DNA from: an uncultured Geobacter sp.
GTDB lineage: Bacteria > Desulfobacterota > Desulfuromonadia > Geobacterales > CAIOGM01
Assembly: GCA_903857795.1 (NCBI GenBank)
Contig: CAIOGM010000077.1
Coordinates: 15,121-79,120, forward strand
Direction: 5' to 3'
DNA length: 64,000 nt
Below the pieces are notes generated by a model, which worked only from the letters and a program-made list of their open reading frames with translations, was not told where the DNA came from and searched no databases. Shown piece after piece: positions 7,772 to 60,056 of the stretch (position 1 is the stretch's first letter; each line of letters begins with the position of its first letter). A program made the translations under genes and the position numbers.

Positions 7772-10141
7772 ATGACCGCACCCCCTATACCCGAGCAGAG
7801 TGTTGAAGACGTCCACCTGAAGGATTACCTCCGGGTGATCCTCCGCCGCCGAAAGATCTTCTTCCTGGCGTTTTTTACGGTGGTTTCCGGGATCGTCTTC
7901 TACACCTTTACGGTCAAGCCGGTGTATGAATCGTCCGCGACTCTCCATGTCAAGGACGACAAGATGAGCAAGGGATCCCTGGTCCAGGAGTTGGGACTCG
8001 GCACCCAGAACGCCGTGGATACCGAGATCGAGATCCTCAAGTCCGTGAGCAATGCCGAACAGGTGGTGAAGATCCTGCACCTGGACTGGAGGATCTCAGA
8101 CCGCTCGCCGGAGCTTCTCTTTACCCTGCTGGAGTTCGACGCTCCGGTGGACAAAGTTTATACGTATACGGTCACTCTCACTGCCGCCGATCAGTTCTCG
8201 GTCACCGATTCCGACGGCGGTCAAGTCGCCGTCGGCCGGAGTAACGTCTCCTTGTCCAAGGGGGGATTCCGGCTCCTCCTGGGGGGGCTCAAGGGGAAGG
8301 CCGGCGACAGCTTCCAGCTCTCCCACACTCCTCCCGACATCGCCGCAGGCGGTCTGCAGAAGCAGATCAAAGCAAGCGAAGTGGGGAAGAAGACCAGCAT
8401 CATCAAGCTCACGGTGAGCAACACGAGCCCGGTCCGGGCCAGGGATATCGCCAACACCCTCACCCAGGTCTACCTGGAGCAGAGCGTCGGGTTCAAGAGT
8501 GAGGAGGCGAGCCGGACCCTGGAGTTCATCGACGAACAGATGAAGCAGATCCATGGCGCCGTGGACGCCGCCGAGGTCAAGCTCCAGTCCTACAAGAGCG
8601 CCACCGGCATCTTCAAGTTGGACACCGAAGCCGAGGAGTTGATCAAGAAGCTCTCCGAAGTGGACAAGGAGCGGGCCGCCACGTCACTCCGGAAGAAACA
8701 GCTGGAGTTTGCCCTCCTGGCCCTCAGGGAAGATATGGCCAAGGGGCGGATCTACACGCCGTCACTCATGAAAGATGACGCCGACGTGGCCGGGATTGCG
8801 GCCAAACTTGCCGACCTGGAGCTTCAGAGGAAGGGGCTGCGTATCGATCAGACCGACGAGAGCCCCCGGGTCAGGGCGATCCAGGCCCAGATCGACGAGA
8901 CCCAACGCCTCCTCCGCGCCACCTATGAGACCAACCTCAAGAACCTGCAGAAGCAGGAGGGGGGGCTCAACCAGCTCATGGGGGGCTACGAGGGGGGGCT
9001 CCGGAAGCTTCCATCCGCCGAACTGGAGCTGGCCCGTCTCTCCCGGGTCTCCAAGGTCAATGTCGACATCTATCTCTTTCTCCTCCAGAAGCACGAAGAG
9101 GCGAGGATCGTCAAGGCCGGGACCATCAGCAACATCAACGTCATCGACCAGGCGCGCCTCCCCCGCAGGCCGGTCACGCCGGACAAAAAGAAGAATATCA
9201 TCCTGGCTCTCCTGGTGGGGGCCATGCTCGGCGCCGGTCTTGCCTTTTTCACCGAATACCTGGACGACACCATCAAGGATGGCGAGGAGGCCCGCCGGGA
9301 GTTGGGGCTCCCCATAATGGCCACCATACCGTTCATCTCCGGTGAGTCGGGAGAGACGGGTGAGCAGGCCGAGTACGCCCCCTCCCTGGTCACCCACCTG
9401 GCGCCAAAGGCGTCGGTCACCGAGGCATTCCGGAGTTTGAGAACCAGCATCCACTTCTCTGCGATCAGCAAGGAGAAGAAGATCATCCTCGTCACCAGTA
9501 ACTTCCCCAGTGAGGGGAAGAGTACGGTCATAGCCAACCTGGCGGTGACCCTGACCCAGACCGGGGCCCGGGTTCTCCTCATTGACTGCGACATGCGGCG
9601 GCCGTCCCTGCATACCCTCTTCAAGCAGGAGAAGGCGCCGGGCCTGAGTGACGCGTTGGCCGGGGACACCCCTCTGAACGGGGTCATCCACGACACCGGT
9701 ATCTCTGGTCTCGACTTCATCCCCGCCGGCACCACCCCTCCCAACCCGGCGGAGCTCCTCGGCTCGGTTTCCATGAAGGAGCGGCTGGACGCCTTAAGGC
9801 TCCTGTATGACCATGTGCTCATCGACGCCCCTCCCTACCTGGCGGTCACCGACGCTCCGCTTCTCTCCGCCTCTGCCGACCTCATGCTGCTGGTCCTGCA
9901 GTCCGAACGGGTCCCGGCCAAGCTGGCCAAGCGGACCGTGGAGATGCTTCAGTCCATCGGTGCACCGTTGGCCGGCATAGTCCTTAACGACAAGACCGGC
10001 CAGACCGAGCGGTACGGCTACTACGGCGGCAGATACTACGGCTACGGTTATTACGGCTATGGCTACGGCTACTACGGTGAAGAGAAGGCCGCCGGCAAAA
10101 AGAAGAAGAGCCGAGGGTGGTGGAAGAAGCTGTTCAGGTAG
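7772..10141 (+). CDS. Chain-length determinant / BY-type tyrosine autokinase (Wzc/GumC-like)
   Basis: Two TM segments flank a long coiled-coil region. The C-terminal P-loop kinase has Walker A SEGKST, A' LLIDCDMRRP and B VLIDAPP, followed by the Tyr-rich tail YGYYGGRYYGYGYYGYGYGYYG. Confidence 0.85.
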   Translation: MTAPPIPEQSVEDVHLKDYLRVILRRRKIFFLAFFTVVSGIVFYTFTVKPVYESSATLHVKDDKMSKGSLVQELGLGTQNAVDTEIEILKSVSNAEQVVKILHLDWRISDRSPELLFTLLEFDAPVDKVYTYTVTLTAADQFSVTDSDGGQVAVGRSNVSLSKGGFRLLLGGLKGKAGDSFQLSHTPPDIAAGGLQKQIKASEVGKKTSIIKLTVSNTSPVRARDIANTLTQVYLEQSVGFKSEEASRTLEFIDEQMKQIHGAVDAAEVKLQSYKSATGIFKLDTEAEELIKKLSEVDKERAATSLRKKQLEFALLALREDMAKGRIYTPSLMKDDADVAGIAAKLADLELQRKGLRIDQTDESPRVRAIQAQIDETQRLLRATYETNLKNLQKQEGGLNQLMGGYEGGLRKLPSAELELARLSRVSKVNVDIYLFLLQKHEEARIVKAGTISNINVIDQARLPRRPVTPDKKKNIILALLVGAMLGAGLAFFTEYLDDTIKDGEEARRELGLPIMATIPFISGESGETGEQAEYAPSLVTHLAPKASVTEAFRSLRTSIHFSAISKEKKIILVTSNFPSEGKSTVIANLAVTLTQTGARVLLIDCDMRRPSLHTLFKQEKAPGLSDALAGDTPLNGVIHDTGISGLDFIPAGTTPPNPAELLGSVSMKERLDALRLLYDHVLIDAPPYLAVTDAPLLSASADLMLLVLQSERVPAKLAKRTVEMLQSIGAPLAGIVLNDKTGQTERYGYYGGRYYGYGYYGYGYGYYGEEKAAGKKKKSRGWWKKLFR

Positions 10142-10161
10142 CTAAAGGGGAGAAATCTGTA

Positions 10162-10965
10162 ATGCTTCCCGAACATATGACCGACTGGCATAGCCACCTC
10201 CTTCCCGGGCTTGACGACGGCGCTGCGACAGTGGAGGAGGCTCTTGAAATGGCCCTTATCCTGTCCAAGGCCGGGTTCCGCCAGGTCTGCTGTACTCCCC
10301 ACTGCATCAGGGGGAGCTATGACGCTACGGGCGGCCAGGTCCGGGCCGCCGTGCACTCCCTGCAGGGTGAGCTCGACGCCGCCGGGATCGATATTCGGCT
10401 ACGTCCCGGTCGGGAGCATTATCTCGATGAGTTCCTCCCCGACTATCTCGGGACCGATCCTCTCACCCTTGGCGACAGTCGTTACTTCCTCCTGGAGATC
10501 CCCTCCACCCAGGACCCCGAGTATGTGAAGCAGGCCTGCTACCGGATCCGGATCAAGGGGTTCATACCTGTCATAGCTCACCCCGAACGCTGCTCTCTCC
10601 TTTCCCCCCCCAGGCCTAAACCAGTTCAGGGTTCAGGGTTCAAGGTTCAAAACTCTCGGTTTGGTCGTCTGCTCCGCCGCCTCACCGGATCAAACCGGCT
10701 GCGACATGCCTCGGCCTCTGACGCCTCACCGGCGGCGCCCCACACCTCACCCCTTCTCGACTATCTCGTGGAGATTGGCGGGCAGTTCCAGGGGAACATC
10801 GGTAGCCTGGCAGGCATCTACGGGGAAATCCCGGAACGCCGTTCCCGCAGGTATCTGGCGGCAGGGCTCTATACCCTCTATGGCAGCGATGCGCATTCCC
10901 CTCTGACCCTCGAGACGTGGCTCGGTGAAGGGCTGGCGCTTCTGCCGGGAGCAGAGGAGTCTTGA
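10162..10965 (+). CDS. CpsB/CapC-type PHP-family protein-tyrosine phosphatase with a roughly 50-aa low-complexity insertion
   Basis: PHP motifs DWHSHLLPGLDDG, CTPH, IAHPER and GSDAH. The start is moved to ATG 10162. The insertion SPPRPKPVQGSGFKVQNSRFGRLLRRL... is encoded partly by four heptamer units at 10624-10651. Confidence 0.7.
   Translation: MLPEHMTDWHSHLLPGLDDGAATVEEALEMALILSKAGFRQVCCTPHCIRGSYDATGGQVRAAVHSLQGELDAAGIDIRLRPGREHYLDEFLPDYLGTDPLTLGDSRYFLLEIPSTQDPEYVKQACYRIRIKGFIPVIAHPERCSLLSPPRPKPVQGSGFKVQNSRFGRLLRRLTGSNRLRHASASDASPAAPHTSPLLDYLVEIGGQFQGNIGSLAGIYGEIPERRSRRYLAAGLYTLYGSDAHSPLTLETWLGEGLALLPGAEES
10624..10651 (-). repeat. Heptamer array A (inverse orientation): GTTCAGG GTTCAGG GTTCAAG GTTCAAA, inside the CpsB-like CDS
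   Basis: Counted directly. It is the same unit family as the arrays at 15054, 17927, 33126 and 35912, on the opposite strand. Confidence 0.85.
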
Positions 10966-15053: not shown

Positions 15054-15109
15054 GAACATAGAACACAGAACCCAGAACATTGAACCCAGAACCCAGAACC
15101 CTGAACCTC
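15054..15109 (+). repeat. Heptamer array B: 8 units GAACATA GAACACA GAACCCA GAACATT GAACCCA GAACCCA GAACCCT GAACCTC
   Basis: Counted directly. It lies between the tgt stop (15122) and the ugd start (15021). Confidence 0.85.
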
Positions 15110-15121
15110 GCCCTTCCGAAC

Positions 15122-16225
15122 TCAGCCTCTCTTGTACTCTTCCAAAAACTCTCGTTTGAAGGGGGCGAATCGTCCCTCTTCGATGGCGCTGCGGCAGCGG
15201 CTCATGAGGTCCAAGTAGAACTGGACGTTATGGATACTGGCGAGGATGGCGGAGAGGACCTCGTTAGCGTTAAAGAGATGGTGCAGGTAGGCGCGGGTGA
15301 AGTTGCGGCAGGTGTAGCAGCTGCAATTTGGTTCCACGGGGAAGAAGTCCCGGCGGTAGTTCTTGTGGGTGAGTCGGATCCTCCCCCGATTGGTGAAGAG
15401 GGTGGCGCTCCGGGCGTAGCGGGTAGGAATGACGCAGTCGAACATGTCCATTCCCCGTTCGACGCTCTCCAGGATGTCTTCGGGAAGGCCGACCCCCATG
15501 AGGTAACGGGGCTTGTCAACGGGGAGAAACGGCTCGGTCATCCCCACCACCTTCTTCAGCAACTCCAGCCCCTCACCCACGGAGACTCCGCCGATGGCAT
15601 AACCGGGGAAATCCATGGCCACCATCTCCTTGGCGCAGAGCTCGCGCAGGTCGGGAAAGACGCTCCCCTGGACGATGGCGAAGAGCGCCTGATCCTTGCG
15701 GGTATGGGCCTTTTGGCACTGCTCGGCCCAGCGGAGGGTCTTGCGGGTGGAGTTGGCGGCGTACTCCCGGTCGCAGGGGTAGGGGATGCATTCATCGAAG
15801 GTCATGATGATGTCGGCCCCCAACGCCTCCTGAATGGCCATGGCCCGGCTAGGGTCAAGGTAGACCTCTTCGCCGGTGATCTCATGTTTGAAGAAGGCGC
15901 CGTCATCGGTGATCCGTTTGTTGGGGAGGGAGAAGACCTGGAAGCCGCCGGAGTCGGTGAGGATCGGGCCGTCCCACCCCATGAAGCGGTGGAGGCCGCC
16001 GGCCTTGGCCACGAGCCCCTCGCCAGGGCGGAGGTGGAGATGGTAGGTGTTGCTGAGGATGATCTGGGCGCCGCTCTCCTTTACCTGGGCCGGAGTCATC
16101 GCCTTCATGGCGGCATGGGTCCCCACCGGCATGAAGATGGGGGTCTCGATGACCCCGTGGGGAGTTTCCAGGCGGCCCCGCCGGGCGGAAGTGGTCGTGT
16201 CGCGTGCGATCAGGGTGAATTTCAT
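15122..16225 (-). CDS. tgt: Queuine tRNA-ribosyltransferase (tRNA-guanine transglycosylase)
   Basis: [30 protein letters not shown] and the zinc site CSCYTC...H. Confidence 0.95.
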
Positions 16226-17926: not shown

Positions 17927-18024
17927 GAACCCAGCACCTTGAACCAAGAACCTTGAACCCAGAACCTTGAACATAGAACCTTGAACATAGAACCTTGAAC
18001 ATAGAACCTTGAACCCAGAACCCT
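17927..18024 (+). repeat. Heptamer array C: 14 units including (GAACCTT GAACATA)x3
   Basis: Counted directly. It ends 3 nt from the ykgJ-like stop codon (18028-18030). Confidence 0.85.
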
Positions 18025-18027
18025 TCT

Positions 18028-18306
18028 TTACGCCTTTTTCTTCCGTCGGGTGAGTCCCAGTTCCTGCCGGTAGCCGCAGCCGTCGTGGAGCCACCGCAGT
18101 TCCGGGACCAGCTCTTCGGTCAGCTTGATGCATTCAGGGTTGATCTGAAAGCGGCGGTCATAGATGCTGCAGTCACGGCTGACCACGTCCAGGTAGCGAC
18201 AGGGGATGCTCGTATAGAAGATGGCCCCGTCTTGGTCTTCGATCTTCTCGAAGCAGCACCGGCCGCAGTGGTGGCAGAGTTCTTCCCAGATTCCAGTATC
18301 GCTCAT
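18028..18306 (-). CDS. YkgJ/UPF0153 family cysteine-cluster protein
   Basis: CHHCGRCCFEK and the later C..L....CSIYDRR pattern. The start is placed at ATG 18306 (18318 is the alternative), not at the long ORF start 18552. Confidence 0.65.
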   Translation of the reverse strand: MSDTGIWEELCHHCGRCCFEKIEDQDGAIFYTSIPCRYLDVVSRDCSIYDRRFQINPECIKLTEELVPELRWLHDGCGYRQELGLTRRKKKA

Positions 18307-18387
18307 GGGGGGGAGCATACAGGCAAGTGGTGGACGTGTCAATAAAGGTAAAAACGGCGGCCGAGATAACCGGTTCATCTTTCTTGG

Positions 18388-18416
18388 TTGAACGGAGCGT
18401 CGGGGCAAGGTATAAG
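18388..18416 (+). promoter_or_regulatory. Sigma-70-type promoter for ppx
   Basis: TTGAAC, a 17-nt spacer, then TATAAG, about 40 nt upstream of ATG 18458. Confidence 0.4.
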
Positions 18417-18457
18417 AGCGAGGAGACGGTTTTGGATTATGAACTCCGGAGGATGAG

Positions 18458-19993
18458 ATGACCGTACCATCAAACCGGCTGGCTGCTATTGATATCGGCA
18501 CCAACTCCATCCGCTGCATCGTGGTGGAGGCGGCGCCCAACGGGAAGTTCAAGATCCTGGATGACGAAAAGGCTACGGTCCGGCTGGGCGAAGGGCTCTA
18601 TCGGACCGGGGAGCTGACCCCCGCCTCGTGGCAGCGGGCGATCGAGGCCCTGGTCCGGATGAAAAAGGTGGTGGACGGCTACCGGGTCCGGGCAATCGAG
18701 GCGGTGGCCACCAGTGCGGTGCGCCAGGCCGCCAACGGCCGGGAGTTCATCGAACTGGTGGACCGGGAGGTCGGCATTACCGTCCAGGTGATCTCCGGTG
18801 AAGAGGAGGCGGAGCTGGCTGTTCTCTCGGCACGGCACAACTTCGACATGGAAGGGATTCCCCATGCCATGATCGATATTGGCGGGGGGAGCGTTGAGAT
18901 CATCACCGCCTTCGGCGGGCATGTGGAAGAGCTGGTCTCCCTGCCGCTGGGAGCGGTGGTTCTGACCGAGCGATTCATCAAGAGTGACCCGGTTGCCGCC
19001 ATGGACGAAGAGCGGCTCAGGAAATACATCCGGAGCTCCCTTCATGATCGTTTCGAGGAGGGTTTCCCGGCTTACTGCCTCCTCGGTTCCGGCGGGACCA
19101 TGAACGCCATCGCCTCCATGGTCATGGCCATGGGGAACGAGGGTTATCAGTCGGTTCACGGGTACGATATCCTCCGCTCCCAGGTGGTTCATCTCTTGGC
19201 CATGCTCCTGCGCAAGGGGTTCGGGGAGCGGCGGAGCGTCCCGGGGCTCAACGCCGACCGCTCCGATATCATCATCGCCGGGGTGACGGCGGTGGATGAG
19301 CTGATGCGGTTTTTCGGCGCAAACATCCTCAGGATCAATGAGCGGGGAATCCGGGAAGGGCTGATTCTCCGGGGGCTCCGCCGGCACGGGCTCCTCCCTC
19401 AGGAGGAGCAGCCACCACGGAGCTGGCGCGAGGTGATTCTGGAATTTGCCCGCTCCTGCCACTTCGACGAGGAGCACTCTCTCCATGTGACTCGTCTCTG
19501 TCTGACGCTCTTCGACCACCTTGCAGGGCAGTTCTGCCTGGGTGAGCGGGAGCGTCAGGTGCTGGAGGCGGCGGCCATTCTCCACGATGTCGGCTACCTC
19601 ATCAGCTACGAGAGCCATCACAAACACACCTATCTCCTGATCCGGCACGCGGAGCTCTTCGGTTTCACCCCCCGCGAGCGGGAGCTCATCGCCAATGTGG
19701 CCCGCTACCACCGGAAGTCCCTCCCCAAGAAGAAACACGAGAGTTATGCCCGTCTGGCGCCGGCTGACCGGCTCCTGGTGCAGCAGTTGGGCGGCATCCT
19801 CCGTCTCTGTGACGGTCTCGACCGCCGCCGGAACAGCCAGGTCCGTACCCTCGATTGTTCCCTCACCTCATCGACGTTTACCATCACGGTGGTGGATCAA
19901 GAGGATGTCTCGGTGGAGCTCTTCGGTGGCAGCGCCAAGGGGGATCTCTTCGAGATCGCCTTCGGCCGAAAGCTGCTGCTGACCACGGTGTGA
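18458..19993 (+). CDS. ppx: Exopolyphosphatase / pppGpp phosphohydrolase (Ppx/GppA) with C-terminal HD domain
   Basis: IDIGTNSIRCIVVE and IDIGGGSVE actin-like ATPase motifs, plus the HD block ILHDVGYLISYESHHKH. Confidence 0.85.
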   Translation: MTVPSNRLAAIDIGTNSIRCIVVEAAPNGKFKILDDEKATVRLGEGLYRTGELTPASWQRAIEALVRMKKVVDGYRVRAIEAVATSAVRQAANGREFIELVDREVGITVQVISGEEEAELAVLSARHNFDMEGIPHAMIDIGGGSVEIITAFGGHVEELVSLPLGAVVLTERFIKSDPVAAMDEERLRKYIRSSLHDRFEEGFPAYCLLGSGGTMNAIASMVMAMGNEGYQSVHGYDILRSQVVHLLAMLLRKGFGERRSVPGLNADRSDIIIAGVTAVDELMRFFGANILRINERGIREGLILRGLRRHGLLPQEEQPPRSWREVILEFARSCHFDEEHSLHVTRLCLTLFDHLAGQFCLGERERQVLEAAAILHDVGYLISYESHHKHTYLLIRHAELFGFTPRERELIANVARYHRKSLPKKKHESYARLAPADRLLVQQLGGILRLCDGLDRRRNSQVRTLDCSLTSSTFTITVVDQEDVSVELFGGSAKGDLFEIAFGRKLLLTTV

Positions 19994-24262: not shown

Positions 24263-24380
24263 AACACGGAGCAACGGAGCAACGGAGAATATAAGTGTTA
24301 ACCGACAGGCGGGCTCAACTGAGCGCCTGACATCGAATTTTCACCTCTGGGTAGGCTCCGTTACTCCGTTGCTCCGTGTT
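24263..24380. repeat. 25-bp inverted repeat (24/25 match) around a 68-nt structured spacer, between convergent genes
   Basis: AACACGGAGCAACGGAGCAACGGAG (24263-24287) pairs with CTCCGTTACTCCGTTGCTCCGTGTT (24356-24380). An inner hairpin CAGGCG-N12-CGCCTG lies in the spacer. Confidence 0.8.
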
Positions 24381-28424: not shown

Positions 28425-29732
28425 ATGGCTAACTGCTTTAACGAGGAGTTTGAGACCCTTCCCCGCCCGGCCCTGGAGGCGCTGCAGCTCACGCGGCTCC
28501 GGAATGTGCTGGAGCGGGTCTATGCCAACGTGCCGTTCTACCGTACCTCCCTGGACGCCGCAGGGGTCCGGCCGGCTGACGTGACCTCCCTGGCCGACCT
28601 CCATCGGCTCCCCTTCACCACCAAGCAGGATATGCGGGACTCCTATCCCTACGGGCTCTTTGCCGCCCCTCTGGAGGAGATCGTCAGGATTCACGCCTCC
28701 TCCGGCACCACCGGCAAGCCGACGGTGGTTGGGTACACGCGCAAGGATATCGAGAACTGGAGCGAGCTGATGGCCCGCTCCTTCGTGGCGGCCGGGGCCC
28801 ATCGGGGGGATATCATCCACAACGCCTACGGCTACGGTCTCTTCACCGGCGGCCTGGGGGCCCATTACGGCGCCGAGCGGCTGGGCGCCTCGGTCATCCC
28901 CATCTCTGGCGGCAACACCCGGCGCCAGCTGATGATCATGCAGGACTTCGGCTCCACGGTGCTCACCTGCACCCCCTCCTACTCCCTCTATATGGCCGAG
29001 GAGGCCAGAAGCGAAGGGGTCGACTTCAAAAAACTCAAGCTCCGGGTGGGGATCTTCGGCGCCGAGCCATGGTCCGAGGCGATGCGGGGAGAGATCGAGG
29101 AGAAGCTCAACCTGGACGCCATCGACATCTACGGCCTCTCCGAGATCATGGGACCGGGGGTGGCCATCGAGTGCATCCAGGCCAAGCACGGGCTCCATAT
29201 CTGGGAAGATCACTTCATCCCCGAGATCATCGACCCGGTGAGCGGAGAGCCGCTTGCCGAGGGGGAGACGGGGGAGCTGGTCATCACCACCATCACCAAG
29301 CAGGGGATTCCGCTCATCCGTTACCGGACCCGGGATGTGACGAGTTTAAGCTATGAGCCGTGCGTCTGCGGCCGGACCCACGCCCGGCTCGCCCGGATGA
29401 GCGGTCGCAGCGACGACATGCTCATCATCCGCGGGGTCAACGTCTTCCCGTCCCAGATCGAGTCGGTTCTGGTGGGGATCGAAGGGGTAGAGCCCCATTA
29501 CCTGCTCATCGTGGAGCGGAAGGAGAACCTGGACACCCTGGAGGTGCAGGTGGAGGTGGACGAGCGGCTCTTCTCCGACGAGATCAAGGTGCTTCAGGGG
29601 CTGGCGCGCCGGATCGAGAAGGAGATCAAGGAGCTGCTGGGGGTCACCTGCAGCGCCAAGCTGGTGGAACCGCGAACCATCCAGCGGAGCGAAGGAAAAG
29701 CCACCCGGGTCATCGACAAACGGAAATTGTAG
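28425..29732 (+). CDS. paaK: Phenylacetate-CoA ligase family (aryl-acetate adenylating enzyme), copy 1
   Basis: [15 protein letters not shown]-loop, [16 protein letters not shown] and C-terminal [10 protein letters not shown]. Confidence 0.8.
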
Positions 29733-29770
29733 GGGGGCGCATGGCATGCGCCCGTGCATTCAAGGCCCCT
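29729..29770. repeat. GTAGGGG-type palindromic element, half copy; its GTAG contains the paaK-1 stop codon
   Basis: GTAGGGGGGCGCATGgCATGCGCCC. The palindrome GGGCGCATG/CATGCGCCC at 29735-29753 is identical to the first hairpin of the element after carA. Confidence 0.7.
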
Positions 29771-29775
29771 GACCA

Positions 29776-29979
29776 ATGAAAGTGAGAGTTATTATTCACG
29801 ATGCGGAAGAAGGTGGTTTCTGGGCTAAAGTACCGGCCATCCCCGGATGCATGACCCAGGGTGATTCCATGAAAGAGTTGATCGAAAATCTGTATGACGC
29901 CATTGAGGGGTGTTTGAGTATCGACATGGAGAGTATCCACCCTGGTCTGAACGACAGCGTCATGGATTTAGCAGTCTGA
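29776..29979 (+). CDS. hicB: HicB-like (UPF0150) antitoxin
   Basis: MKVRVIIHDAEEGGFWAKVPAIPGCMTQGDSMKELIENLYDAIEGCL matches the HicB N-terminal domain pattern. Confidence 0.65.
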   Translation: MKVRVIIHDAEEGGFWAKVPAIPGCMTQGDSMKELIENLYDAIEGCLSIDMESIHPGLNDSVMDLAV

Positions 29980-29980
29980 G

Positions 29981-30180
29981 ATGAAAACGATCGGTGGGGC
30001 GAGGATGTGCAGGCTCCTTGAAGCCGAGGGGTGGGAACTTGCTCGCATTACTGGAATTCACCACATTTTGTCAAGATAGGCAGTAATCTCCTGATTACCG
30101 TTCCGGTTCACGGTAATCAGGATCTGAAAATCGGTTTGCAGAAAGCCATTATGAAGCAGGCGGCAATTGCGGAAGCTTGA
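29981..30180 (+). pseudogene. hicA: HicA-like mRNA interferase toxin, inactivated by a 1-nt frameshift in a T4 run (30066-30069)
   Basis: Frame 1 gives MKTIGGARMCRLLEAEGWELARITGIHHIL then a stop at 30077. A shifted frame continues FVKIGSNLLITVPVHGNQDLKIGLQKAIMKQAAI to a stop at 30180. Together they form a full HicA/YcfA pattern. Confidence 0.6.
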
Positions 30181-30307
30181 GTTGTAGTGCGGAGTCCAAG
30201 CGTGTCAATCAATATAGGTGACTTTCTCAATTTTGTTGCACGGCAAGAAGGAGTAGTGCAGACTTTTCTCCGTGTCTCAGTGTCTCCGTGGTGAAAGGGG
30301 TAACAAC

Positions 30308-30739
30308 ATGAAAGTCGAACAGATCTCCATCTTTATCGAAAACAAGTCGGGCCGGCTGGCCGAGGTCTCCCGGGTCCTGGGGGAGACCGGGGTGAATATT
30401 CGGGCGCTGTCACTGGCCGATACCTCTGATTTCGGCATCCTCCGGCTCATCGTCGACGACTCCGAGAAGGCCAAGGGGGTGCTCAAGGAGAAGGGGTTCA
30501 CCGTCAGCAAGACCGAGGTCGTGGCGGTGGAGGTCCCGGACCAGCCGGGGGGGCTGGCCCGCATCCTCCAGGTGCTGGACAGCGACGCCATCAATGTGGA
30601 GTATATGTACGCCTTCGTGGAGCGGTGCGACGGCAATGCGGTCATCATCTTCCGGTTCGACGAGACCGACCGGGCCATCCGGACGCTCCTCGCCAAGGGG
30701 TTCAACATCCTTGACGGAAGCCAACTTTACAGTATGTAG
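30308..30739 (+). CDS. Tandem ACT-domain protein
   Basis: Two ACT repeats ([24 protein letters not shown] and [23 protein letters not shown]). The start is at ATG 30308. Confidence 0.8.
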
Positions 30740-30764
30740 GGATCAACCCGCGGAGGGGGAGAAG

Positions 30765-31904
30765 ATGAAACAGTATGTGGTGGCAGTAGTGGCAGCGGCT
30801 GTGATGCTCAGTTCCCTGGAGGCCATGGCGGCGGGGACTGTCCGGATCGGGGCGCTCTTCTCGGTGACCGGGCCGGCATCGTTTTTGGGGGAACCGGAGA
30901 AGAAAACCCTGGAGATGCTGGTGAAGGAGGTGAACGCCAAGGGGGGGATCAAAGGGAACAAGATCGAGCTCTTCATCGAGGATACTCAGGGTGACGTCAC
31001 CAAGGCAAAGCAGCTTGTCTCCAAGCTGATCAAGAATGACAAGGTAGTCGCGATTATTGGCCCCAGCACCACCGGCGATACCATGGCCATTATTGACGAC
31101 GTGGAAAAGGCCGGAATTCCGATGGTATCCTGTGCTGCCGGGGTCAAGATCACTGATCCGGTGAAGAAGTGGGTCTTCAAGACCCCCGCCAACGACCATG
31201 TGGCCGGGGAGAAGCTCCTCGACTATCTGGCTGCCAAGAAGCAGAAGAGCCTGGCGCTCCTGACCGTCTCCGATGCCTATGGCCAGTCAGGCCGGGAGCA
31301 GCTCAAGGCGTTGGCCGCCAAGAAGGGGTTCTCCGTGGTGGCCGATGAGCTCTACTCCCCCAAGGACACGGACATGACCTCCCAGCTCACCAAGATCAAG
31401 GGGAGCAAGGCCGACGCCATCATCTGCTGGGGGACCAACCCGGGCCCGGCGGTGGTGACCCGCAACGTGAAGCAGCTGGGGATCAAGATCCCGCTCTATC
31501 AGAGCCACGGGGTCGCCTCCAAGAAGTATATCGAGCTGGCCGGTGCCGAAGCTGCCGAAGGGGTCGTCCTCCCGGCGGGGAAGCTGACTATCTACGACAA
31601 GATGAAGAAGAGCGACCCGCAGTTCAAGGTGTTGAGCGACTACAACCTTGCCTACAAGAAGAGCTACGGGGTTGAGGCCTCCACCTTTGGCGGCTATGCC
31701 TATGACGCCTTCGAGCTCATTTCCGAGGCGATCAGGAAATCGGGAACCACGCCGGAGCAGATCCGCAACGGCATCGAGCAGGTCAAGAAGCTCGTGGGGG
31801 TCTCGGGGCTCTTCACCATGTCCCCAACGGATCACAACGGGCTCGACCAGTCGGCGTTCGAGATGGTGAAGGTCGTCAAGGGCGACTGGGACTTGGCCAA
31901 ATAA
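30765..31904 (+). CDS. ABC amino-acid (Leu/Ile/Val/aromatic type) substrate-binding protein 1
   Basis: Signal peptide and the type-I PBP block IGALFSVTGPASFLGEPE. It is a paralogue of the next gene. Confidence 0.8.
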   Translation: MKQYVVAVVAAAVMLSSLEAMAAGTVRIGALFSVTGPASFLGEPEKKTLEMLVKEVNAKGGIKGNKIELFIEDTQGDVTKAKQLVSKLIKNDKVVAIIGPSTTGDTMAIIDDVEKAGIPMVSCAAGVKITDPVKKWVFKTPANDHVAGEKLLDYLAAKKQKSLALLTVSDAYGQSGREQLKALAAKKGFSVVADELYSPKDTDMTSQLTKIKGSKADAIICWGTNPGPAVVTRNVKQLGIKIPLYQSHGVASKKYIELAGAEAAEGVVLPAGKLTIYDKMKKSDPQFKVLSDYNLAYKKSYGVEASTFGGYAYDAFELISEAIRKSGTTPEQIRNGIEQVKKLVGVSGLFTMSPTDHNGLDQSAFEMVKVVKGDWDLAK

Positions 31905-31916
31905 AGGAGTTATGTC

Positions 31917-33056
31917 ATGAAGCGATCTGCCGCTGCCTTCTGTCTGTTTGTCTTCACCGTCGCTTGGGCTACTCTCTGTCAGGCGAGCCAGCCCATCAGG
32001 ATCGGCGCCCTCTTCTCCGTCACCGGTCCCCCCTCGTTTCTCGGGGAGCCGGAGCGTAACGCCGCCCAGATGGTGGCCGATCAGATCAACAAGGGGGGAG
32101 GGATCAAGGGGCGGCAGGTTCAGCTCATCGTCTACGACACCCAGGGAGACGCCACCAAGGCGGTGCAGCTGGCCAACAAGCTGATCAAGGATGACAAGGT
32201 GGTCGCCATCATCGGCCCCAGCACCACGGGGGAGACCATGGCGGTGCTGCCGGTGGTGGAGAAGGCCGGCATTCCGCTCATCTCCTGCTCCGCCGGCCGC
32301 AAGATCACCGAACCGGTGAACCACTGGGTCTTCAAGACCGCCCAGAACGACAACCTGGCCGTGACCAGGATCTATGACTATCTCCAGAAGAAGAAGCTGA
32401 CCAGGGTGGCGCTCCTCACCGTCTCCGATGGCTTCGGCGCCTCAGGGCGCGAGCAGCTCAAGGCCCAGGCCGCCGCTCACGGCATTCAGCTGCTGGTAGA
32501 CGAGACCTACGGCCCTAAGGATACGGACATGACCGCCCAGCTCACCAAGATCAAGGGGACCAAGGCTGATGCGGTCATCTGCTGGGGGACCAACCCCGGT
32601 CCGGCGGTCATCGCCCGCAACGCCAAGCAGCTGGGGCTCAAGCTGCCGCTCTTCATGAGCCATGGTGTCTCCTCCAAGAAGTTCATCGATCTGGCAGGGG
32701 ATGCCGCCGAAGGGGTCACGCTCCCCTCGGGTAAGGTGATCGTGGCCGACGTCCTCCCCGCGTCGGATCCCCAGAGGAAGTGGCTCATCTCCTTTGTGAA
32801 GGAGTATCAGAAACTCTACAAAGTGGAGGGGGATCATTTTGCCGGGCATGCCTGGGACGCCATGATGCTCCTCAAGGGGGCGCTGGAGAAGGGGGATGAC
32901 ACCCCGGCCGCCATCGCCGGGAACCTTGAGAAAACGAAGGAGTTCCACGGAATCGGCGGCATCTTCACCTACTCCCCCACCGACCATGCCGGGCTCACGA
33001 AGGATGCCTTCGTCCTGGTAGAGATTAAGAACAAGGACTGGGTGCTCGTAAAATAG
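31917..33056 (+). CDS. ABC amino-acid substrate-binding protein 2
   Basis: Signal peptide and IGALFSVTGPPSFLGEPE. It is colinear with copy 1 along its whole length. Confidence 0.8.
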   Translation: MKRSAAAFCLFVFTVAWATLCQASQPIRIGALFSVTGPPSFLGEPERNAAQMVADQINKGGGIKGRQVQLIVYDTQGDATKAVQLANKLIKDDKVVAIIGPSTTGETMAVLPVVEKAGIPLISCSAGRKITEPVNHWVFKTAQNDNLAVTRIYDYLQKKKLTRVALLTVSDGFGASGREQLKAQAAAHGIQLLVDETYGPKDTDMTAQLTKIKGTKADAVICWGTNPGPAVIARNAKQLGLKLPLFMSHGVSSKKFIDLAGDAAEGVTLPSGKVIVADVLPASDPQRKWLISFVKEYQKLYKVEGDHFAGHAWDAMMLLKGALEKGDDTPAAIAGNLEKTKEFHGIGGIFTYSPTDHAGLTKDAFVLVEIKNKDWVLVK

Positions 33057-33125
33057 TTCAATGTTCACTGTTCAGGGTTCAGGAGGCAATGTTCATAAGT
33101 ACAGGGTTATGGGTGTTCTTGACTC

Positions 33126-33251
33126 AACCCTGAACCCTGAACCCTGAACCCTGAACCCTGAACCCTGAACCCTGAACCTTGAACCTTGAACCTTGAACCT
33201 TGAACCTTGAACCTTGAACCTTGAACCTTGAACCTTGAACCCTGAACCTTG
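33126..33251 (+). repeat. Heptamer array D: 18 units = (AACCCTG)7 (AACCTTG)9 AACCCTG AACCTTG; two inverse units at 33070-33083
   Basis: Counted unit by unit with no interruption. The 3' flank AACAAAGGTTTTATCC runs into the livH ATG at 33268. Confidence 0.9.
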
Positions 33252-33267
33252 AACAAAGGTTTTATCC

Positions 33268-34152
33268 ATGGATTTATTACAGCAGTTGACCCAGTACGCC
33301 TTTTCCGGCTTTTCCACGGGGGCAATTTATGCCCTCATCGGGCTGGGGTTCGCCATCATCTATAACTCCACCGGGATCATCAACTTCGCCCAGGGGGAGT
33401 TCGTCATGCTGGGGGGGGTCCTCACCTATTTCTCTCTTACGGTGCTGAGGCTCCCCTACCTTGTGGCCATGGCCGTGGCCGTGGCCGTCACCACCGCGGC
33501 AGGAGCGGCCTTCGAGCGTCTGACCATCCGGCCGCTGAAGAGCCCGTCCCCCTTGAGCCTGGTGATCATCACCATCGGCGGGAGCATCTTCATCCGCGGG
33601 GTGGCCATGCTCCTCTGGGGGAAGGATACCCACGCGCTCCCCCCCTTCTCCGGTAACGACCCGCTCACCGTCGGCGGGGCCAGCATCATGCCCCAGCATC
33701 TCTGGATCTTCGGCATCACCCTGCTGATCATCGCCGCCAACAAGTTCTTCTTCTACTACACCATCAGCGGCAAGGCGATGAGGGCCTGCTCCCACAACCG
33801 GACCGCGGCAAGCCTCGTGGGGATCGATGTCCGGAAGATGGTGCTCCTCTCCTTTGTCATCAGCTCCGCCGTCGGCTCTCTGGCCGGGATCATCATCGCC
33901 CCGCTCACCATGACCGCCTACGATGTGGGGGTCATGCTGGGGCTCAAGGGGTTCTGCGCCGCCATCATCGGCGGCATGAGCAGCGGCTTCGGCACCGTGC
34001 TGGGGGGGCTGCTCCTGGGACTGCTGGAGTCCTTCGGCGCCGGGCTCATCTCCTCGGGGTACAAGGACGCCATCGCCTTCATCGTCTTGCTCCTCATCCT
34101 CTTCATCCGCCCCCAGGGGCTCTTCTCCAAGGCGCAGACGGAAAGGGTGTAA
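33268..34152 (+). CDS. livH: Branched-chain amino-acid ABC permease LivH
   Basis: Typical N-terminus LQQL..G...GAIYALIALG and a multi-TM profile. Confidence 0.85.
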   Translation: MDLLQQLTQYAFSGFSTGAIYALIGLGFAIIYNSTGIINFAQGEFVMLGGVLTYFSLTVLRLPYLVAMAVAVAVTTAAGAAFERLTIRPLKSPSPLSLVIITIGGSIFIRGVAMLLWGKDTHALPPFSGNDPLTVGGASIMPQHLWIFGITLLIIAANKFFFYYTISGKAMRACSHNRTAASLVGIDVRKMVLLSFVISSAVGSLAGIIIAPLTMTAYDVGVMLGLKGFCAAIIGGMSSGFGTVLGGLLLGLLESFGAGLISSGYKDAIAFIVLLLILFIRPQGLFSKAQTERV

Positions 34153-34156
34153 CCGA

Positions 34157-35125
34157 TTGAAACGCGATTATCTGCTCTTTCTCCTCTTCACCCTGGTGGT
34201 CCTTGTGGCGCCGTTGGCCTTCGAGGGGGGGTACCTGCTCAACGTCCTGGTCTTCATGGGGATCAACACCATGCTGGCCGTGGCGCTGAACCTGTTGTTG
34301 GGCTTTGCCGGCCAGATCTCCCTGGGGCACGCCGCCTTCTTCGGGCTGGGGGCCTACATCTCCGGGGTCCTCACCGCCAACCACGGGGTCAACCCCTGGG
34401 TCGCACTCCCCATCGCCGCCCTCTCCGTGGGGGTCATCGCCTTCCTCCTGGGGTTCCCGATTCTCAAGCTCAAGGGGCACTACCTGGCAATGGCCACCCT
34501 GGGGTTCGGGATCATCGTCTTCATCGTCTTCAACGAGACCGTTGAGATCACCGGTGGTCCTTCCGGGCTCACCGGCATCCCCACCATGAAGATCGGCGCC
34601 ATGGAGTTCCAGGGGGAGATGAAGAGCTACTACCTCATCTGGGGGTTCACCCTCCTGACCATGCTCCTCTCCATCAACCTGGATCACTCCCGTATCGGCC
34701 GGGCGCTCCGGGCGATCCACGACTCCGAGGTCGCCTCCCGGGTCATGGGGGTCAACGCCCGCTTCCTGAAGGTGCAGGTCTTCACCCTCTCGGCGGTCAT
34801 CTCGGCGGTGGCCGGGAGCCTCTATGCCCACACCATGACCTTCGTCTCCCCCTCATCCTTCGGTTTCAACTTCTCGGTGGAGCTGGTGACCATGGTGATC
34901 ATCGGCGGGCTCGGGAGCATCTTCGGGTCGTTTTTGGGGGCGGCCCTCCTGACCTTCCTGCCGGAGCTCCTCCGGGTGGTGCAGGACTACGATATCGTGG
35001 TCTACGGTCTGCTCCTCATCGTCATGACCATGTATATGCCCAAGGGGCTGGCCGGCGGCGTCGCATCCCTGGCGCGGCTCTTGCGCCCCGCGAAGAAGAG
35101 GACGGTGGACCATGCTCAGGGTTGA
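34157..35125 (+). CDS. livM: Branched-chain amino-acid ABC permease LivM
   Basis: GQISLGHAAFFGLGAY motif and a TTG start. It overlaps livG. Confidence 0.85.
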   Translation: MKRDYLLFLLFTLVVLVAPLAFEGGYLLNVLVFMGINTMLAVALNLLLGFAGQISLGHAAFFGLGAYISGVLTANHGVNPWVALPIAALSVGVIAFLLGFPILKLKGHYLAMATLGFGIIVFIVFNETVEITGGPSGLTGIPTMKIGAMEFQGEMKSYYLIWGFTLLTMLLSINLDHSRIGRALRAIHDSEVASRVMGVNARFLKVQVFTLSAVISAVAGSLYAHTMTFVSPSSFGFNFSVELVTMVIIGGLGSIFGSFLGAALLTFLPELLRVVQDYDIVVYGLLLIVMTMYMPKGLAGGVASLARLLRPAKKRTVDHAQG

Positions 35126-35864
35126 GGGGATAACCCAGCTCTTCGGCGGACTCACGGCTCTTGAAGAGGTCACCTTTACGGTGGGGAAGGGGAGCATCAC
35201 CGGCGTCATCGGTCCCAACGGCGCGGGAAAGACCACCCTGTTCAACATCGTCACCGGGCTCTATACCCCGAGCTCCGGCAGGGTCTTCCTTGACGGGAAG
35301 GAGATCACCTGTTTCCCGCCGGAGCGGCTGGCCCCCCTGGGGCTGGTCCGGACTTTTCAGAACATCGAGATGTTCCACCAGATGACGGTGCTGGAGAACG
35401 TCCTGGTGGGGCTCCATACCCGGAGCCGGAGCGGGATGATCTCCTGCGCCCTCAAGCTGCCGTGGCACCTGGCCGAGGAGCGGCGGCTCCACGCCGAGGC
35501 GATGAAGTGGCTGGAGTTCTGCGGCATCGCCGACCTGGCGGAGCTGGAGGCCAGGGCGCTCCCCTTCGGCAACTGCCGGCTGGTGGAGATCGCCCGGGCC
35601 ATGGCGGTGAACCCGAAGCTGCTCCTCATGGACGAACCGGCCGCCGGGCTCAACAGCCGCGAGACCGCCGACCTGGAGCTTCTCATAAGAAAGATCAGAG
35701 ATACGGGGGTAACCGTGGTCCTGGTGGAGCACGATATGGAGCTGGTCATGGAGATCTGTGACGCCATCGTGGTCCTGAATCTGGGGAAGAAGCTGGCCCA
35801 GGGGAGTCCGCGGGAGATCCAGGAAAACCCCGACGTCATCAGGGCGTACTTGGGAGAAGGCTAA
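35112..35864 (+). CDS. livG: ABC ATPase LivG
   Basis: Walker A GPNGAGKTT, signature and Walker B LLLMDEPAAGL, and the C-terminal AYLGE motif. Confidence 0.9.
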   Translation: MLRVEGITQLFGGLTALEEVTFTVGKGSITGVIGPNGAGKTTLFNIVTGLYTPSSGRVFLDGKEITCFPPERLAPLGLVRTFQNIEMFHQMTVLENVLVGLHTRSRSGMISCALKLPWHLAEERRLHAEAMKWLEFCGIADLAELEARALPFGNCRLVEIARAMAVNPKLLLMDEPAAGLNSRETADLELLIRKIRDTGVTVVLVEHDMELVMEICDAIVVLNLGKKLAQGSPREIQENPDVIRAYLGEG

Positions 35865-35911
35865 CGGCGGTATCTAGAACGGCGGTTCAATGTTCGAGGT
35901 TCAAGGTTGAA

Positions 35912-36002
35912 AACCCCGAACCCCGAACCTTGAACCCCGAACCTTGAACCCTGAACCCTGAACCTTGAACCCTGAACCTTGAACCCAGAACATTGAACAT
36001 CG
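35912..36002 (+). repeat. Heptamer array E: 13 units (AACCCCG x3, AACCTTG x4, AACCCTG x3, AACCCAG, AACATTG, AACATCG); inverse segment at 35884-35908
   Basis: Counted directly. The 3' flank AACAGGTTTT runs into the livF ATG at 36013. Confidence 0.9.
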
Positions 36003-36012
36003 AACAGGTTTT

Positions 36013-36756
36013 ATGCTGCGACTCAAGAACATCAATAGCTACTATGGGCAGGTTCACGCCCTCAAGAACGTCTCGCTGCACCTGGCCAAGGGGGAGATCG
36101 TGACCCTTATCGGCGCCAACGGTGCGGGGAAGAGCACGCTCCTCAACACCCTGTCGGCCATCACTCCGGCCCGCTCCGGTGAGCTGCTCTTCGAGGGGAA
36201 CAGTATCACCACCCTCTCCCCCTCCCGCATCGTGGAGTTGGGGATCTCCCAGGTCCCCGAGGGGCGACAGGTCTTCAAGCCGCTCTCCGTGGAGGACAAC
36301 CTGGAGTTGGGCGCCTACCTGCGCGCCCGGAAACGGGCCGAGAAGGGGGCCATCAGGGACGACCTGGCGATGATCTATGAGCTCTTTCCCCGGCTCAAGG
36401 AGCGGCGCAAGCAGATGGCCGGCACCCTCTCCGGCGGTGAGCAGCAGATGCTCGCCATCGGCCGGGCGCTCATGGCGCGCCCCCGACTCCTCCTCCTGGA
36501 CGAGCCCTCCATGGGGCTGGCCCCTCTGGTGGTGCAGGAGATCTTCAGGGTCGTCGAAGCCCTCCGGAAAGAGAAGGGGACCACGGTCCTGCTGGTGGAG
36601 CAGAACGCCAAGGCGGCCCTCACCCTGGCGGACCGCGGCTATGTCATGGAGACCGGCAAGGTCATCCTGGAGGGGCCCTCCGGGGAGCTCCTGGAGAACC
36701 ACGAAGTTCAGCGGGCGTACCTGGGAAAAGAGAAGAAGGAGATCTGGGAGAGATGA
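36013..36756 (+). CDS. livF: ABC ATPase LivF
   Basis: Walker [19 protein letters not shown] signature, Walker B LLLLDEPS and the AYLG tail. Confidence 0.9.
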
Positions 36757-54827: not shown

Positions 54828-55136
54828 TTAGGTGTCAGCCAACATCTCGACAGCAAGGAGGCGACTGCCATGTACTATCGTCACTATCATGATGATTCCA
54901 CTAATGCTGTCATGGCGGTAGATGCAACGATAGGAACCGATGATCATTTCGCGGTAGGGCAGATGAGGAAATTCAGGCAGGGTGCGACCGGATCCGGGGA
55001 AGTCAGCGAGACGCCGGACCCCTTTGATAACTTTTTCAACCTGGACGCGAGCATAAAAAGGTGAATCTTCGGCAATGTAACCATAGATCGATTCAAGCTC
55101 TTCGGCAGATTTCAGGGACCATTTCAGCGTAGCCAT
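54828..55136 (-). CDS. parE: ParE/RelE-family toxin
   Basis: SAEELESIYGYIAEDSPFYA ... GRTLPEF...YREMIIGSYRCIYRH....IIMIVTIVHGSR is the classic ParE pattern. Confidence 0.7.
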   Translation of the reverse strand: MATLKWSLKSAEELESIYGYIAEDSPFYARVQVEKVIKGVRRLADFPGSGRTLPEFPHLPYREMIIGSYRCIYRHDSISGIIMIVTIVHGSRLLAVEMLADT

Positions 55137-55312
55137 TTCAGCGAGAGCCTTTCAACCACTTCATCGTGTTCCATGATACGGTTGTCGCGGATATCCTGCT
55201 CTCCGGCTTCTATTTTCTGGAGGAGGTAGAGTCGATACATGACTTCCTCGGGATCGATCATGTCGGGAAGATTAGCAAGGCATGATTCCACAGAAGAGCG
55301 GGCAATTTGCAT
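55124..55312 (-). CDS. Putative cognate antitoxin (62 aa)
   Basis: A small acidic ORF that overlaps the parE start by 13 nt. Confidence 0.5.
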   Translation of the reverse strand: MQIARSSVESCLANLPDMIDPEEVMYRLYLLQKIEAGEQDIRDNRIMEHDEVVERLSLKWLR

Positions 55313-58483: not shown

Positions 58484-59062
<579 letters not shown>

Positions 59063-59063
59063 C

Positions 59064-60044: not shown

Positions 60045-60056
60045 GGGGGGGGCAGC

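Follow-up and report, generated by a model that had tools for sequence, protein, structure and literature searches.

What is a perfectly phased run of 18 heptanucleotides doing inside an ATP-binding cassette (ABC) importer operon, in the gap between a binding-protein gene and livH? The question is raised by a stretch of 64,000 nucleotides from an uncultured Geobacter sp. (GenBank assembly GCA_903857795.1, contig CAIOGM010000077.1, positions 15,121 to 79,120). We call this 64-kb stretch the window and use its own numbering for all coordinates, position 1 being its first letter. A sequence-only reading of the window had put the array forward as an undescribed cis-acting system. This claim fails, because in its anatomy the array is like the dispersed heptameric simple-sequence repeats (SSRs), a class that was described before and with which it shares inverted pairs, closeness to a single open reading frame (ORF) and variation in length. 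Judged by its sequence, the array is a new example of these known repeats, with a new unit and in a new host lineage. It forms the longer arm of a two-armed element that is recent, varies in copy number and has a strong potential to fold.

The array has exactly the composition that had been described. Positions 33126-33251 read (AACCCTG)7(AACCTTG)9 AACCCTG AACCTTG, i.e., 18 heptamers in perfect phase over 126 bp, and Tandem Repeats Finder (TRF) agrees, with a period of 7, 18.4 copies, 97% matches and a score of 202. These are tandem, head-to-tail 7-nt units with variants, as in heptameric SSRs, and a GAAC core extends them past 33251 to 33254-33257. On the liv mRNA, the order of the parts is: stop codon, four GTTC units (hereafter G-type), a spacer of 42 nt, 18 GAAC units (C-type), 10 nt, and the ATG of livH (Table 1). 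The untranslated gap between the binding-protein stop and livH is thus 211 nt long. The two inverse units that had been noticed upstream of the array (GTTCAGGGTTCAGG, 33070-33083) are present, but the true arm is longer and comprises four units, the first G of which (33056) is the last base of the TAG stop (33054-33056) of the second binding-protein gene. In other words, the arm is fused to the stop. Apart from 3 mismatches, its sequence is the reverse complement of the array's CCCTG/CCTTG boundary (86% complementary), and the spacer carries a second, shorter array-complementary stretch (GTACAGGGTTATGGGT, 33099-33114), which gives an inner stem. On its other side the array runs into the livH ATG at 33268 through the flank that had been reported (AACAAAGGTTTTATCC), and in support of this start, homologues cover the full protein (100%) when it is read from that methionine. 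The livF array indeed ends in a near-identical junction (GAACAGGTTTTATG), 4 nt before the livF ATG at 36013.

Table 1. Arms of the heptamer elements, related arrays and adjoining genes in the window.
Feature	Position	Strand	Basis or remark
Binding-protein gene no. 2, LivK/LivJ-like, periplasmic	31917..33056	+	Pfam Peripla_BP_6, E = 1e-68; gene order same in relatives
G-type arm, GTTCAAT GTTCACT GTTCAGG GTTCAGG (4 inverse heptamers)	33056..33083	+	sequence and inverted-repeat match
Spacer, 42 nt	33084..33125	+	
C-type arm, 18 heptamers then degenerate unit GAACAAA	33126..33257	+	sequence, TRF
Junction AACAAAGGTTTTATCC up to livH ATG	33252..33267	+	includes weak Shine-Dalgarno AAGG
livH-like permease gene	33268..34152	+	Pfam BPD_transp_2
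Second element, G-type arm, GGTTCAAT GTTCGAG GTTCAAG GTTGAA	35884..35911	+	sequence, inverted-repeat match
Second element, C-type arm, ~13 units	35912..36008	+	TRF, sequence
Solitary 8-unit array between tgt and UDP-glucose dehydrogenase gene (both minus strand)	15054..15109	+	
Solitary 12-unit array	17941..18024	+	adjoins minus-strand gene 18028-18552
4-unit array inside CpsB/CapC-like ORF (10117-10965)	10621..10648	-	G-type on + strand

Other identities can be set aside, in agreement with the sequence-only reading. The units are contiguous and lack spacers, so the array is not a CRISPR array, which would have repeats of 24-48 nt separated by unique spacers. It is not a palindromic REP either, since the repeated unit is 7 nt long and the arms are unequal and variable. 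Nor is it coding: minus-strand ORFs run through it (33093-33317 and 33107-33325) because (CAGGGTT)n has no stop codon, and we rejected them as mechanical ORFs that overlap livH. No Rfam family matches at gathering score anywhere in the 64 kb, as had been expected, and the sub-threshold matches at 32950-36100 are at chance level (E <= 1). A scan of 29700-36100 for promoter and terminator consensus sequences found none tied to the array, with counts at the level of shuffles. A small ORF, from ATG 33090 to TGA 33134, lies 3' of an AGGAGG (33081-33086) at a Shine-Dalgarno spacing of merely 2-3 nt.

The array is one member of a family. A repeat search recovered GAAC/GTTC-core heptamers at the five loci that had been counted in the window, and the two-unit pattern GAACCYWGAACCYW matches the window 30 times, versus 0.02 expected from shuffles. 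Four of these loci are intergenic. The fifth is in frame in the CpsB-like ORF, where the units are translated as VQGSGFKVQ, with the conserved IAHPER motif before them and the C-terminal ...GSDAH region after them, in an insertion-like segment of ~60 residues. Inverted pairs occur at two of the five loci, upstream of livH and, downstream of the livG stop (35862-35864), between livG and livF. The two solitary arrays are flanked by genes on the minus strand, which encode Tgt, UDP-glucose dehydrogenase and a CxxCxxCC protein. The 15054 array reads G-type on the mRNA of tgt (15122-16225, minus) and starts 12 nt after its stop; the 17941 array is also G-type, on the mRNA of 18028-18552, with its first unit 3 nt after the stop. 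Over the window, the distances past a stop are 0, 3, 12, and ~20 nt, and those ahead of a start are 4 and 10 nt. The family is not tied to one orientation relative to transcription, yet in one respect its geometry is constant: the G-rich strand has its 5' end right next to an ORF boundary. Reading the livF, 15054 and 17941 arrays, we found no consistent polarity of degenerate versus homogeneous units that could give a clue to a growing end.

The window has some other features of note. About 190 nt downstream of the 17941 array, the minus-strand ORF 16855-17754 matches DruA, of the Druantia defence system, in Pfam (E = 5e-48). A G-rich hexamer tract at 60002-60057, (GAGGTT)n grading to GAGGTA and GAGGTG, overlaps the stop of the gene 59034-60014 and ends 5 nt before the ATG (60058) of a small ORF (60058-60275), which by its look we presume to be a HicB-type antitoxin. 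A 14-nt tandem repeat, ATTTCAGCGGAGCC, is present in 3.4 copies at 55109-55154.

The number of units in the liv array varies. The array and its flanks are also found in assemblies from other samples (L001, L002, L123-L125), and therefore they are not an artefact of one assembly. Writing C for AACCCTG and T for AACCTTG, the window allele of 18 units is C7 T9 C T, the 12-unit allele of L002 is C5 T5 C T and the 8-unit allele of L125, in which the array is fully spanned, is C5 T1 C T. The contig of L124 breaks in the array after C5 and at least two T units and is thus incomplete. One more contig has a spacer of 141 nt, i.e., 211 minus 70 or ten units fewer, and another long contig has the full 211 nt. 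Contigs with differing unit numbers encode identical flanking proteins, their flanks are otherwise identical and the ORFs are intact in all alleles. At the tgt array, L135 carries one additional AGGGTTC unit. The alleles of 8, 12, and 18 units, taken from near-identical contigs of short-read metagenome assemblies, and the extra unit at tgt bear out the earlier expectation that such a repeat should be prone to slippage. Most short-read contigs break inside the array, and some span a whole array, among them L125 for the liv array and L132 and L135 for others. In L133 (1-230), the 3' end of mraY (…HHHFELKG…LKLR*) is followed, 5 nt after its stop, by GTTCAAG GTTCAAA GTTCAAA and then by the livF array and livF. 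This contig is either an assembly chimera formed through the repeat or a recombinant, and it reveals a further array locus downstream of mraY. Heptamer arrays hence fragment short-read metagenome assemblies and may create chimeric contigs.

We compared the liv operon with that of relatives. The host is an uncultured relative of the Geobacteraceae, and its closest named LivH homologues are those of Geotalea, Oryzomonas, and Geobacter (76-79% identity). Gene order is kept in the relatives (AMP-binding, ACT, two binding proteins, livHMGF, AMP-binding), and the spacers differ widely. The window has 211 nt between the binding-protein gene and livH and 148 nt between livG and livF, each with a GAACC-family element. 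At the same two junctions L126/L127 (LivH 88%) have 3 and 60 nt, and the two contigs that carry P0004 (LivH 88%) have 174 nt at the first and 134 and 176 nt at the second, a difference of 42 = 6 x 7. L137 (LivH 87%) has 0 nt before livH, and 73 nt before livF with (TTCACCW)5 ending 7 nt before the ATG. L128 (LivH 86%) has 87 nt with GGGTGAA heptamers from the stop codon and their inverse, forming a hairpin, and 0 nt between livG and livF. In L136 (LivH 85%), the same GGGTGAA-family hairpin occupies the 85-nt junction, and the one of 57 nt includes a perfect GTTC/GAAC hairpin of 19 bp. Geotalea uraniireducens (L130, LivH 79%) has 221 nt with an ordinary stem-loop, and 694 nt with a Y1 transposase gene and REP-like hairpins. 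Hence, the closest relatives (LivH 85-91%) have either 0-3 nt at the livH junction or another heptamer family that also forms a hairpin. The array is missing there and is therefore recent, not an ancestral part of the operon.

The other heptamer family, GGGTGAA/TTCACCY, is found in sister species at 9917-9946 and 15531-15559 of L128, at 9915-9990 of L136, and at 12633-12666 of L137. It follows the same rules: G-type units run from stops, C-type units end 7 nt before the livF ATG, and inverse copies give hairpins. In G. uraniireducens (strain Rf4, CP000698; L130 12625-13318), the livG-livF junction holds on the opposite strand a 139-aa Y1_Tnp gene (IS200/RAYT-like) flanked by the REP-like hairpins CCCCGCCCAGAGGACGGGG and CCCCGCCCACAGGACGGGG; a tblastn search with this protein found no counterpart in the 64-kb window (best E = 2.5). 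Both liv junctions thus repeatedly gain hairpin-forming repeats of unrelated sequence, which is also known of the REP elements that follow malE and hisJ. The 19-bp GTTC/GAAC hairpin of L136 might be homologous to the livG-livF element of the window, a link that is suggestive only, as the two are not alignable beyond the motif. L137 has HicA/HicB pairs inserted at two places in the liv cluster. In the window, a small ORF (29776-29979) lies between the first AMP-binding gene and the ACT gene, and its counterpart in contigs of identical sequence (L123, 78d_cqUO) is annotated with a weak match to a HicB-like antitoxin.

Can the two arms meet in the transcript? The RNA of 33040-33290 is predicted to fold at -79.5 kcal/mol (z = -6.05), and none of 200 shuffles was as stable; the livG-livF element gives -55.5 kcal/mol (z = -3.76). 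The stem-loop that had been suggested thus stands as far as a strong hairpin is concerned. The part that does not stand is its shape, which had the inverse units pairing with the 3'-terminal units and looping out the array. In the minimum free energy fold, the inverse arm pairs with units at the CCCTG/CCTTG boundary, around 33157-33185, and not with the 3'-terminal ones. The loop therefore takes in only the spacer and the first units. Many pairing registers of the arms are nearly equivalent. A local hairpin of 7 bp (-6.5 kcal/mol) is also possible between the AAGG Shine-Dalgarno region and the final unit of the array. The alleles of 8, 12, and 18 units share the main stem, and the difference between them is confined to the single-stranded tail before the livH ribosome-binding site.

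We then asked how general such arrays are. A scan for (GAACCYW)4 over 185,579 species-representative genomes returned at least 120 stretches in more than 100 genomes of at least 15 phyla, and none of the matches listed is from the source organism. The statistics given here cover the matches listed, in which several genomes have more than one locus and which include Desulfobacterota, Planctomycetota, Acidobacteriota, Chloroflexota, Gamma-, Beta-, and Alphaproteobacteria, Bacteroidota, Verrucomicrobiota, Lentisphaerota, Patescibacteria, and others. Genes around the arrays were placed with a caller based on log-odds of amino acid composition, which was checked on the Pfam-verified genes of the window; greedy calling of the longest ORF was discarded, as it mis-called strands in DNA of 60% GC. 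The loci of the matches listed contain 157 arrays of at least four units, and only 16 of these are inside ORF calls. Half of the G-type arrays (30/60, median 17 nt) start at most 15 nt after a stop codon, versus 5/62 of the C-type arrays (median 112 nt), a significant contrast in distance (Mann-Whitney p = 5e-4). When the downstream gene is on the opposite strand, the 5' side of the G-strand is the one nearer to an ORF in 36 of 46 cases (median 9.5 versus 174.5 nt, p = 1.6e-4). Inverted pairs are nearly always G-then-C (37) and seldom C-then-G (4). A start codon that looks genuine often follows a C-type array at 0-25 nt, frequently with no room for a Shine-Dalgarno sequence, and the N-termini encoded there resemble those of HemA, BioB, TopA, CysC, QueE, and aminoacyl-tRNA synthetases. 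GAACCTA and GAACCTT units occur across loci as often as GAACCCT ones, and GGTTC rather than GGG is the conserved core.

GAACC arrays often adjoin other heptamer arrays, in composite tracts with GGGATAG, CCCTGTT, and GAAAACT. Units of the TAACTGA type (CAGTGAT CAGTTAT on the array strand) adjoin them in an unclassified metagenome-assembled genome (MAG; L008, ~430-470) and in a MAG of Candidatus Uhrbacteria (L011, ~2600-2645, minus strand). As in the window, a GAACC array neighbors a tgt homologue in two unrelated MAGs, directly past the gene in L024 (~1150-2291) and within ~1.5-2.5 kb of it in L050 (~1034-4641). This is probably a coincidence, since the orientation in L024 is opposite to that in the window. 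In viral contigs we counted 47 GAACCYW stretches, versus 14 and 11 for two composition-matched control heptamers. GAACCYW is thus a relatively common heptamer and not a unique one, and its excess in viral contigs is modest.

What could the element do for the operon? The account that we favor starts from a two-armed SSR, with four G-type units (GTTCNNN) at the stop and 18 C-type units (AACCYTG) ending 10 nt before livH. The element belongs to a dispersed, lineage-specific heptamer family with a GGTTC/GAACC core, arose recently in a Geobacteraceae-like lineage and gains or loses units as wholes, for which replication slippage is the simplest explanation. On the polycistronic liv mRNA, the arms would pair in an imperfect stem of ~28 bp right after the binding-protein stop, leaving downstream a C-rich, G-poor, unstructured tail of variable length up to the weak livH ribosome-binding site. 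Such a hairpin may act like a REP element, shielding the upstream binding-protein message from 3' exonucleases, or may be a processing or pause site. The binding protein would then be made in excess over the permease, and how far the hairpin lies from the livH ribosome-binding site would depend on the number of units. Slippage and any effect on RNA stability or translation are what we infer from the alleles and the predicted folds, which make a role as a REP-like intercistronic RNA hairpin plausible. The full statement, from two-armed SSR through slippage to hairpin, has in our judgment an even chance of being right. Several observations weigh against this account. The stem is imperfect, with a complementarity of 80-86% that allows many registers, it has no U-tract downstream, and no terminator or promoter consensus was found with it. 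In close relatives the operon makes do with 0-3 nt at the livH junction, and therefore the hairpin is dispensable. Three of the five loci of the window have no inverse partner and are in the opposite orientation relative to transcription, one of them in a coding region, so one RNA role cannot explain the whole family. The alleles come from short-read metagenome assemblies that are often broken or collapsed at the array, and one contig (L133) looks chimeric.

The main rival is a neutral or selfish by-product of slippage, a heptamer tract that persists just outside ORF ends, where the harm is small, and in the tolerated orientations, which avoid Shine-Dalgarno-like or Rho-loading sequences. On this view the array would play no part in liv expression, and the hairpin would be a side effect of the convergent-pair geometry of the family. 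This is a tentative but real contender. It fits the absence of the array from the closest relatives, with their 0-3-nt spacers, a unit number that varies more than two-fold between near-identical genomes, and the presence of the family in both orientations relative to transcription and once within a coding sequence, which argues against a single simple role at the RNA level. The analogous repeats of Xanthomonas and Nostoc also gave no function despite direct tests (PMC4692102), and heptamers are the most over-represented long SSRs according to Mrazek et al. 2007, who are cited as suggesting polymerase slippage (via PMC4692102, PMC4679880). However, the rules of position and orientation are strong across the phyla of the matches listed, and the recurrence of non-homologous hairpin repeats at both liv junctions in relatives exceeds what tolerance alone predicts. 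One could go further and regard GAACC-type arrays not as plain slippage debris but as pan-bacterial gene-boundary elements, ruled by orientation, that are made or kept by a specific mechanism. If so, they would have been recruited in ABC-importer operons as length-tunable intercistronic hairpins that set the ratio of binding protein to permease. The mechanism could be a polar process of synthesis or conversion, or a dedicated binding factor. The sequences that suggest it are the G-strand 5' ends at ORF ends, the ~9:1 excess of convergent pairs, and the GGTTC core in at least 15 phyla. Our survey extends the positional rules of Rehm et al., drawn from two genera (PMC4692102), to a new unit and many phyla, with the G-strand after stops, the C-strand before starts and convergent pairs; this recurrence makes a common cause likelier. 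We consider the gene-boundary proposal unlikely as it is stated.

The remaining explanations concern one arm or the data themselves. It is quite improbable that the C-type array is an unstructured standby site or enhancer, or the target of an RNA-binding protein (S1, Csp-like, or other), that drives translation of livH and livF. C-type arrays do end 4-10 nt before both starts, next to weak Shine-Dalgarno sequences, those of other phyla end 0-25 nt before starts, often with no room for one, in the matches listed, and MacGregor's proposal for the TAACTGA repeats (PMC4679880) offers an analogy; but the same family is found equally often after stop codons in the opposite orientation, the relatives translate livH and livF without an array, and no candidate binding protein was identified. 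We would lend no more weight to a G-quadruplex (G4) or i-motif, formed by the (CAGGGTT)7 template block or by the G-type RNA arms, that modulates transcription or RNA decay in the way put forward for GGGAATC repeats. Seven consecutive GGG-N4 units are indeed present on the minus strand (33126-33174), GGGTTCA is identical to a variant of the Plasmodium telomere repeat known from the G4 literature, and related G-rich heptamers fold into G4 and i-motif structures in vitro (PMC4692102). Yet at least four consecutive units with an intact G3 run are found in the (CAGGGTT)7 block alone and not in (CAAGGTT)9, so that the AAGGTTC x9 half of the array has no such runs, and at other loci most units (TGGGTTC mixed with AATGTTC, TATGTTC, and AAGGTTC) lack them too. 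G4 formation is thus unlikely to be a general property of the GAACC family, many of whose units have no G3 run, with GAACCTA and GAACCTT as frequent as they are. Even less probable is a Rho-loading (rut-like) polarity site, in which the C-rich, G-poor tract would cause partial termination before livH. With two to three C and one G per 7 nt over 126 nt of an untranslated 211-nt gap, the composition is suitable, but composition is all that speaks for it, part of the tract is sequestered in the predicted hairpin and the 8-unit allele leaves almost no free tract. Finally, we give hardly any credence to an assembly artefact, in which a repeat was collapsed or expanded and the DNA itself has no array this long. 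It would account for the contigs that break inside the array and for the junction of mraY with the livF array in L133, but the same flanks and array come from several independent samples and assemblers, contigs span the liv array and others fully, and a second long contig has the same 211-nt spacer.

How does the element compare with systems already known? Palindromic REP/BIME elements were reportedly studied by Newbury, Higgins and colleagues in 1987 in the malE-malF and hisJ-hisQ gaps of enterobacteria. The window element is likewise a dispersed repeat with a stable predicted RNA hairpin directly after the binding-protein gene of an ABC-importer operon. Unlike REP/BIME, it consists of tandem 7-nt units, has unequal arms (4 versus 18), and lacks a fixed palindromic consensus of 35-40 nt. 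The analogy drawn earlier with REP elements after binding-protein genes seems a reasonable one, given that relatives carry non-homologous hairpin repeats at the same junctions. Another comparison is with the cyanobacterial STRR, heptanucleotides of Calothrix and Anabaena reportedly described by Mazel et al. in 1990, a paper that PMC4692102 cites. Their units are CCCCAGT, TTGGTCA, and CAACAGT, and the family is defined for heterocystous cyanobacteria. They share with the GAACC family the tandem heptanucleotides, the dispersed non-coding locations, and the restriction to a lineage, and have different units. A literature search with all rotations of the unit on both strands found no description of a bacterial GAACCCT/GGGTTCA array, only variants of Plasmodium and plant telomeres and primers.

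The TAACTGA direct repeats of marine Beggiatoaceae, cyanobacteria, and Bacteroidetes abut start codons and are patchy across phyla (MacGregor 2015, PMC4679880). The GAACC arrays resemble them in being intergenic, in ending a few nucleotides upstream of starts, where a ribosome-binding site is expected, in their patchy distribution over phyla, and in having stop codons in all three frames of the forward orientation. Unlike them, they have another unit, with 18 copies in the liv array versus mostly 2-6, and the reverse orientation after stops and inverted pairs are equally prominent. The C-type arrays hence follow the position rule of the TAACTGA repeats and, by their unit, do not belong to them. 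In a related host lineage, Geobacter metallireducens has multicopy elements made of short tandem units at many intergenic sites, among them a GGGACCG x4 family and TCTCCGTS x3 sites, with a proposed regulatory role (PMC2700814). Their units differ from those of the window array, they have a fixed 3-5 copies and they look like protein-binding sites rather than long arrays of variable length. Sites of TCTCCGTG x3 also occur in the window. Three tandem octamers, TCTCCGTG TCTCAGTG TCTCCGTG, lie at 30267-30290, 18 nt ahead of the start codon with which the liv cluster opens, that of an ACT-domain gene, and an inverted pair of 3 x CTCCGTNN (24266-24287 and 24356-24377, 70 nt apart) lies in another intergenic region. 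These octamers match the "class 2 global regulator binding sites" (TCTCCGTS x3, mostly paired) of G. metallireducens (PMC2700814). With the phase-variation SSRs of host-adapted pathogens, the liv array has in common a unit number that changes, presumably by slippage. It differs from them in that it lies between cistrons and not inside an ORF or between promoter hexamers, that changes in unit number shift no frame and affect no promoter consensus, and that its neighbors are housekeeping genes.

The best match is with the long SSR class that comprises the repeats of Mrazek, the cyanobacterial STRR, GGGAATC of Xanthomonas and GGGGAYT of Nostoc (PMC4692102), and TAACTGA of Beggiatoaceae (PMC4679880). 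The G-rich families of Xanthomonas and Nostoc form a subset of the long heptameric SSRs of Mrazek et al. 2007. For Xanthomonas campestris, Rehm et al. 2015 counted 186 arrays of GGGAATC, and in Nostoc PCC 7120 they found arrays of GGGGAYT that are alike; ~90% are intergenic, at a mean distance of 28 nt to the 5' neighboring ORF versus 160 nt to the downstream one (PMC4692102). They also reported 70-75 convergent inverted pairs able to form stem-loops, one Nostoc array inside the pec operon (pecE-pecF), a wide variation of length between close relatives, and transcription of both strands (PMC4692102). The liv array and its family resemble these repeats in their variant 7-nt units, dispersed loci, intergenic bias, convergent pairs, intra-operon site, and length variation. 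They are unlike GGGAATC in their GGTTC core (GGGTTCA, AAGGTTC, TAGGTTC), in the Geobacteraceae-like host, and in the occurrence of the unit type in at least 15 phyla. Every feature of the heptameric class that we tested is found in the GAACC family, i.e., tandem units, dispersal, intergenic bias, closeness of the G-strand to an ORF, convergent pairs, and length variation. Dispersed heptamer repeats were already known in 1990, and no other class of long SSRs is as over-represented in bacteria. Among them, the present locus makes a clean natural test case, with a two-armed element in a well-understood operon, alleles of 8, 12, and 18 units, and sister lineages that have either no element or another heptamer family at the same junction.

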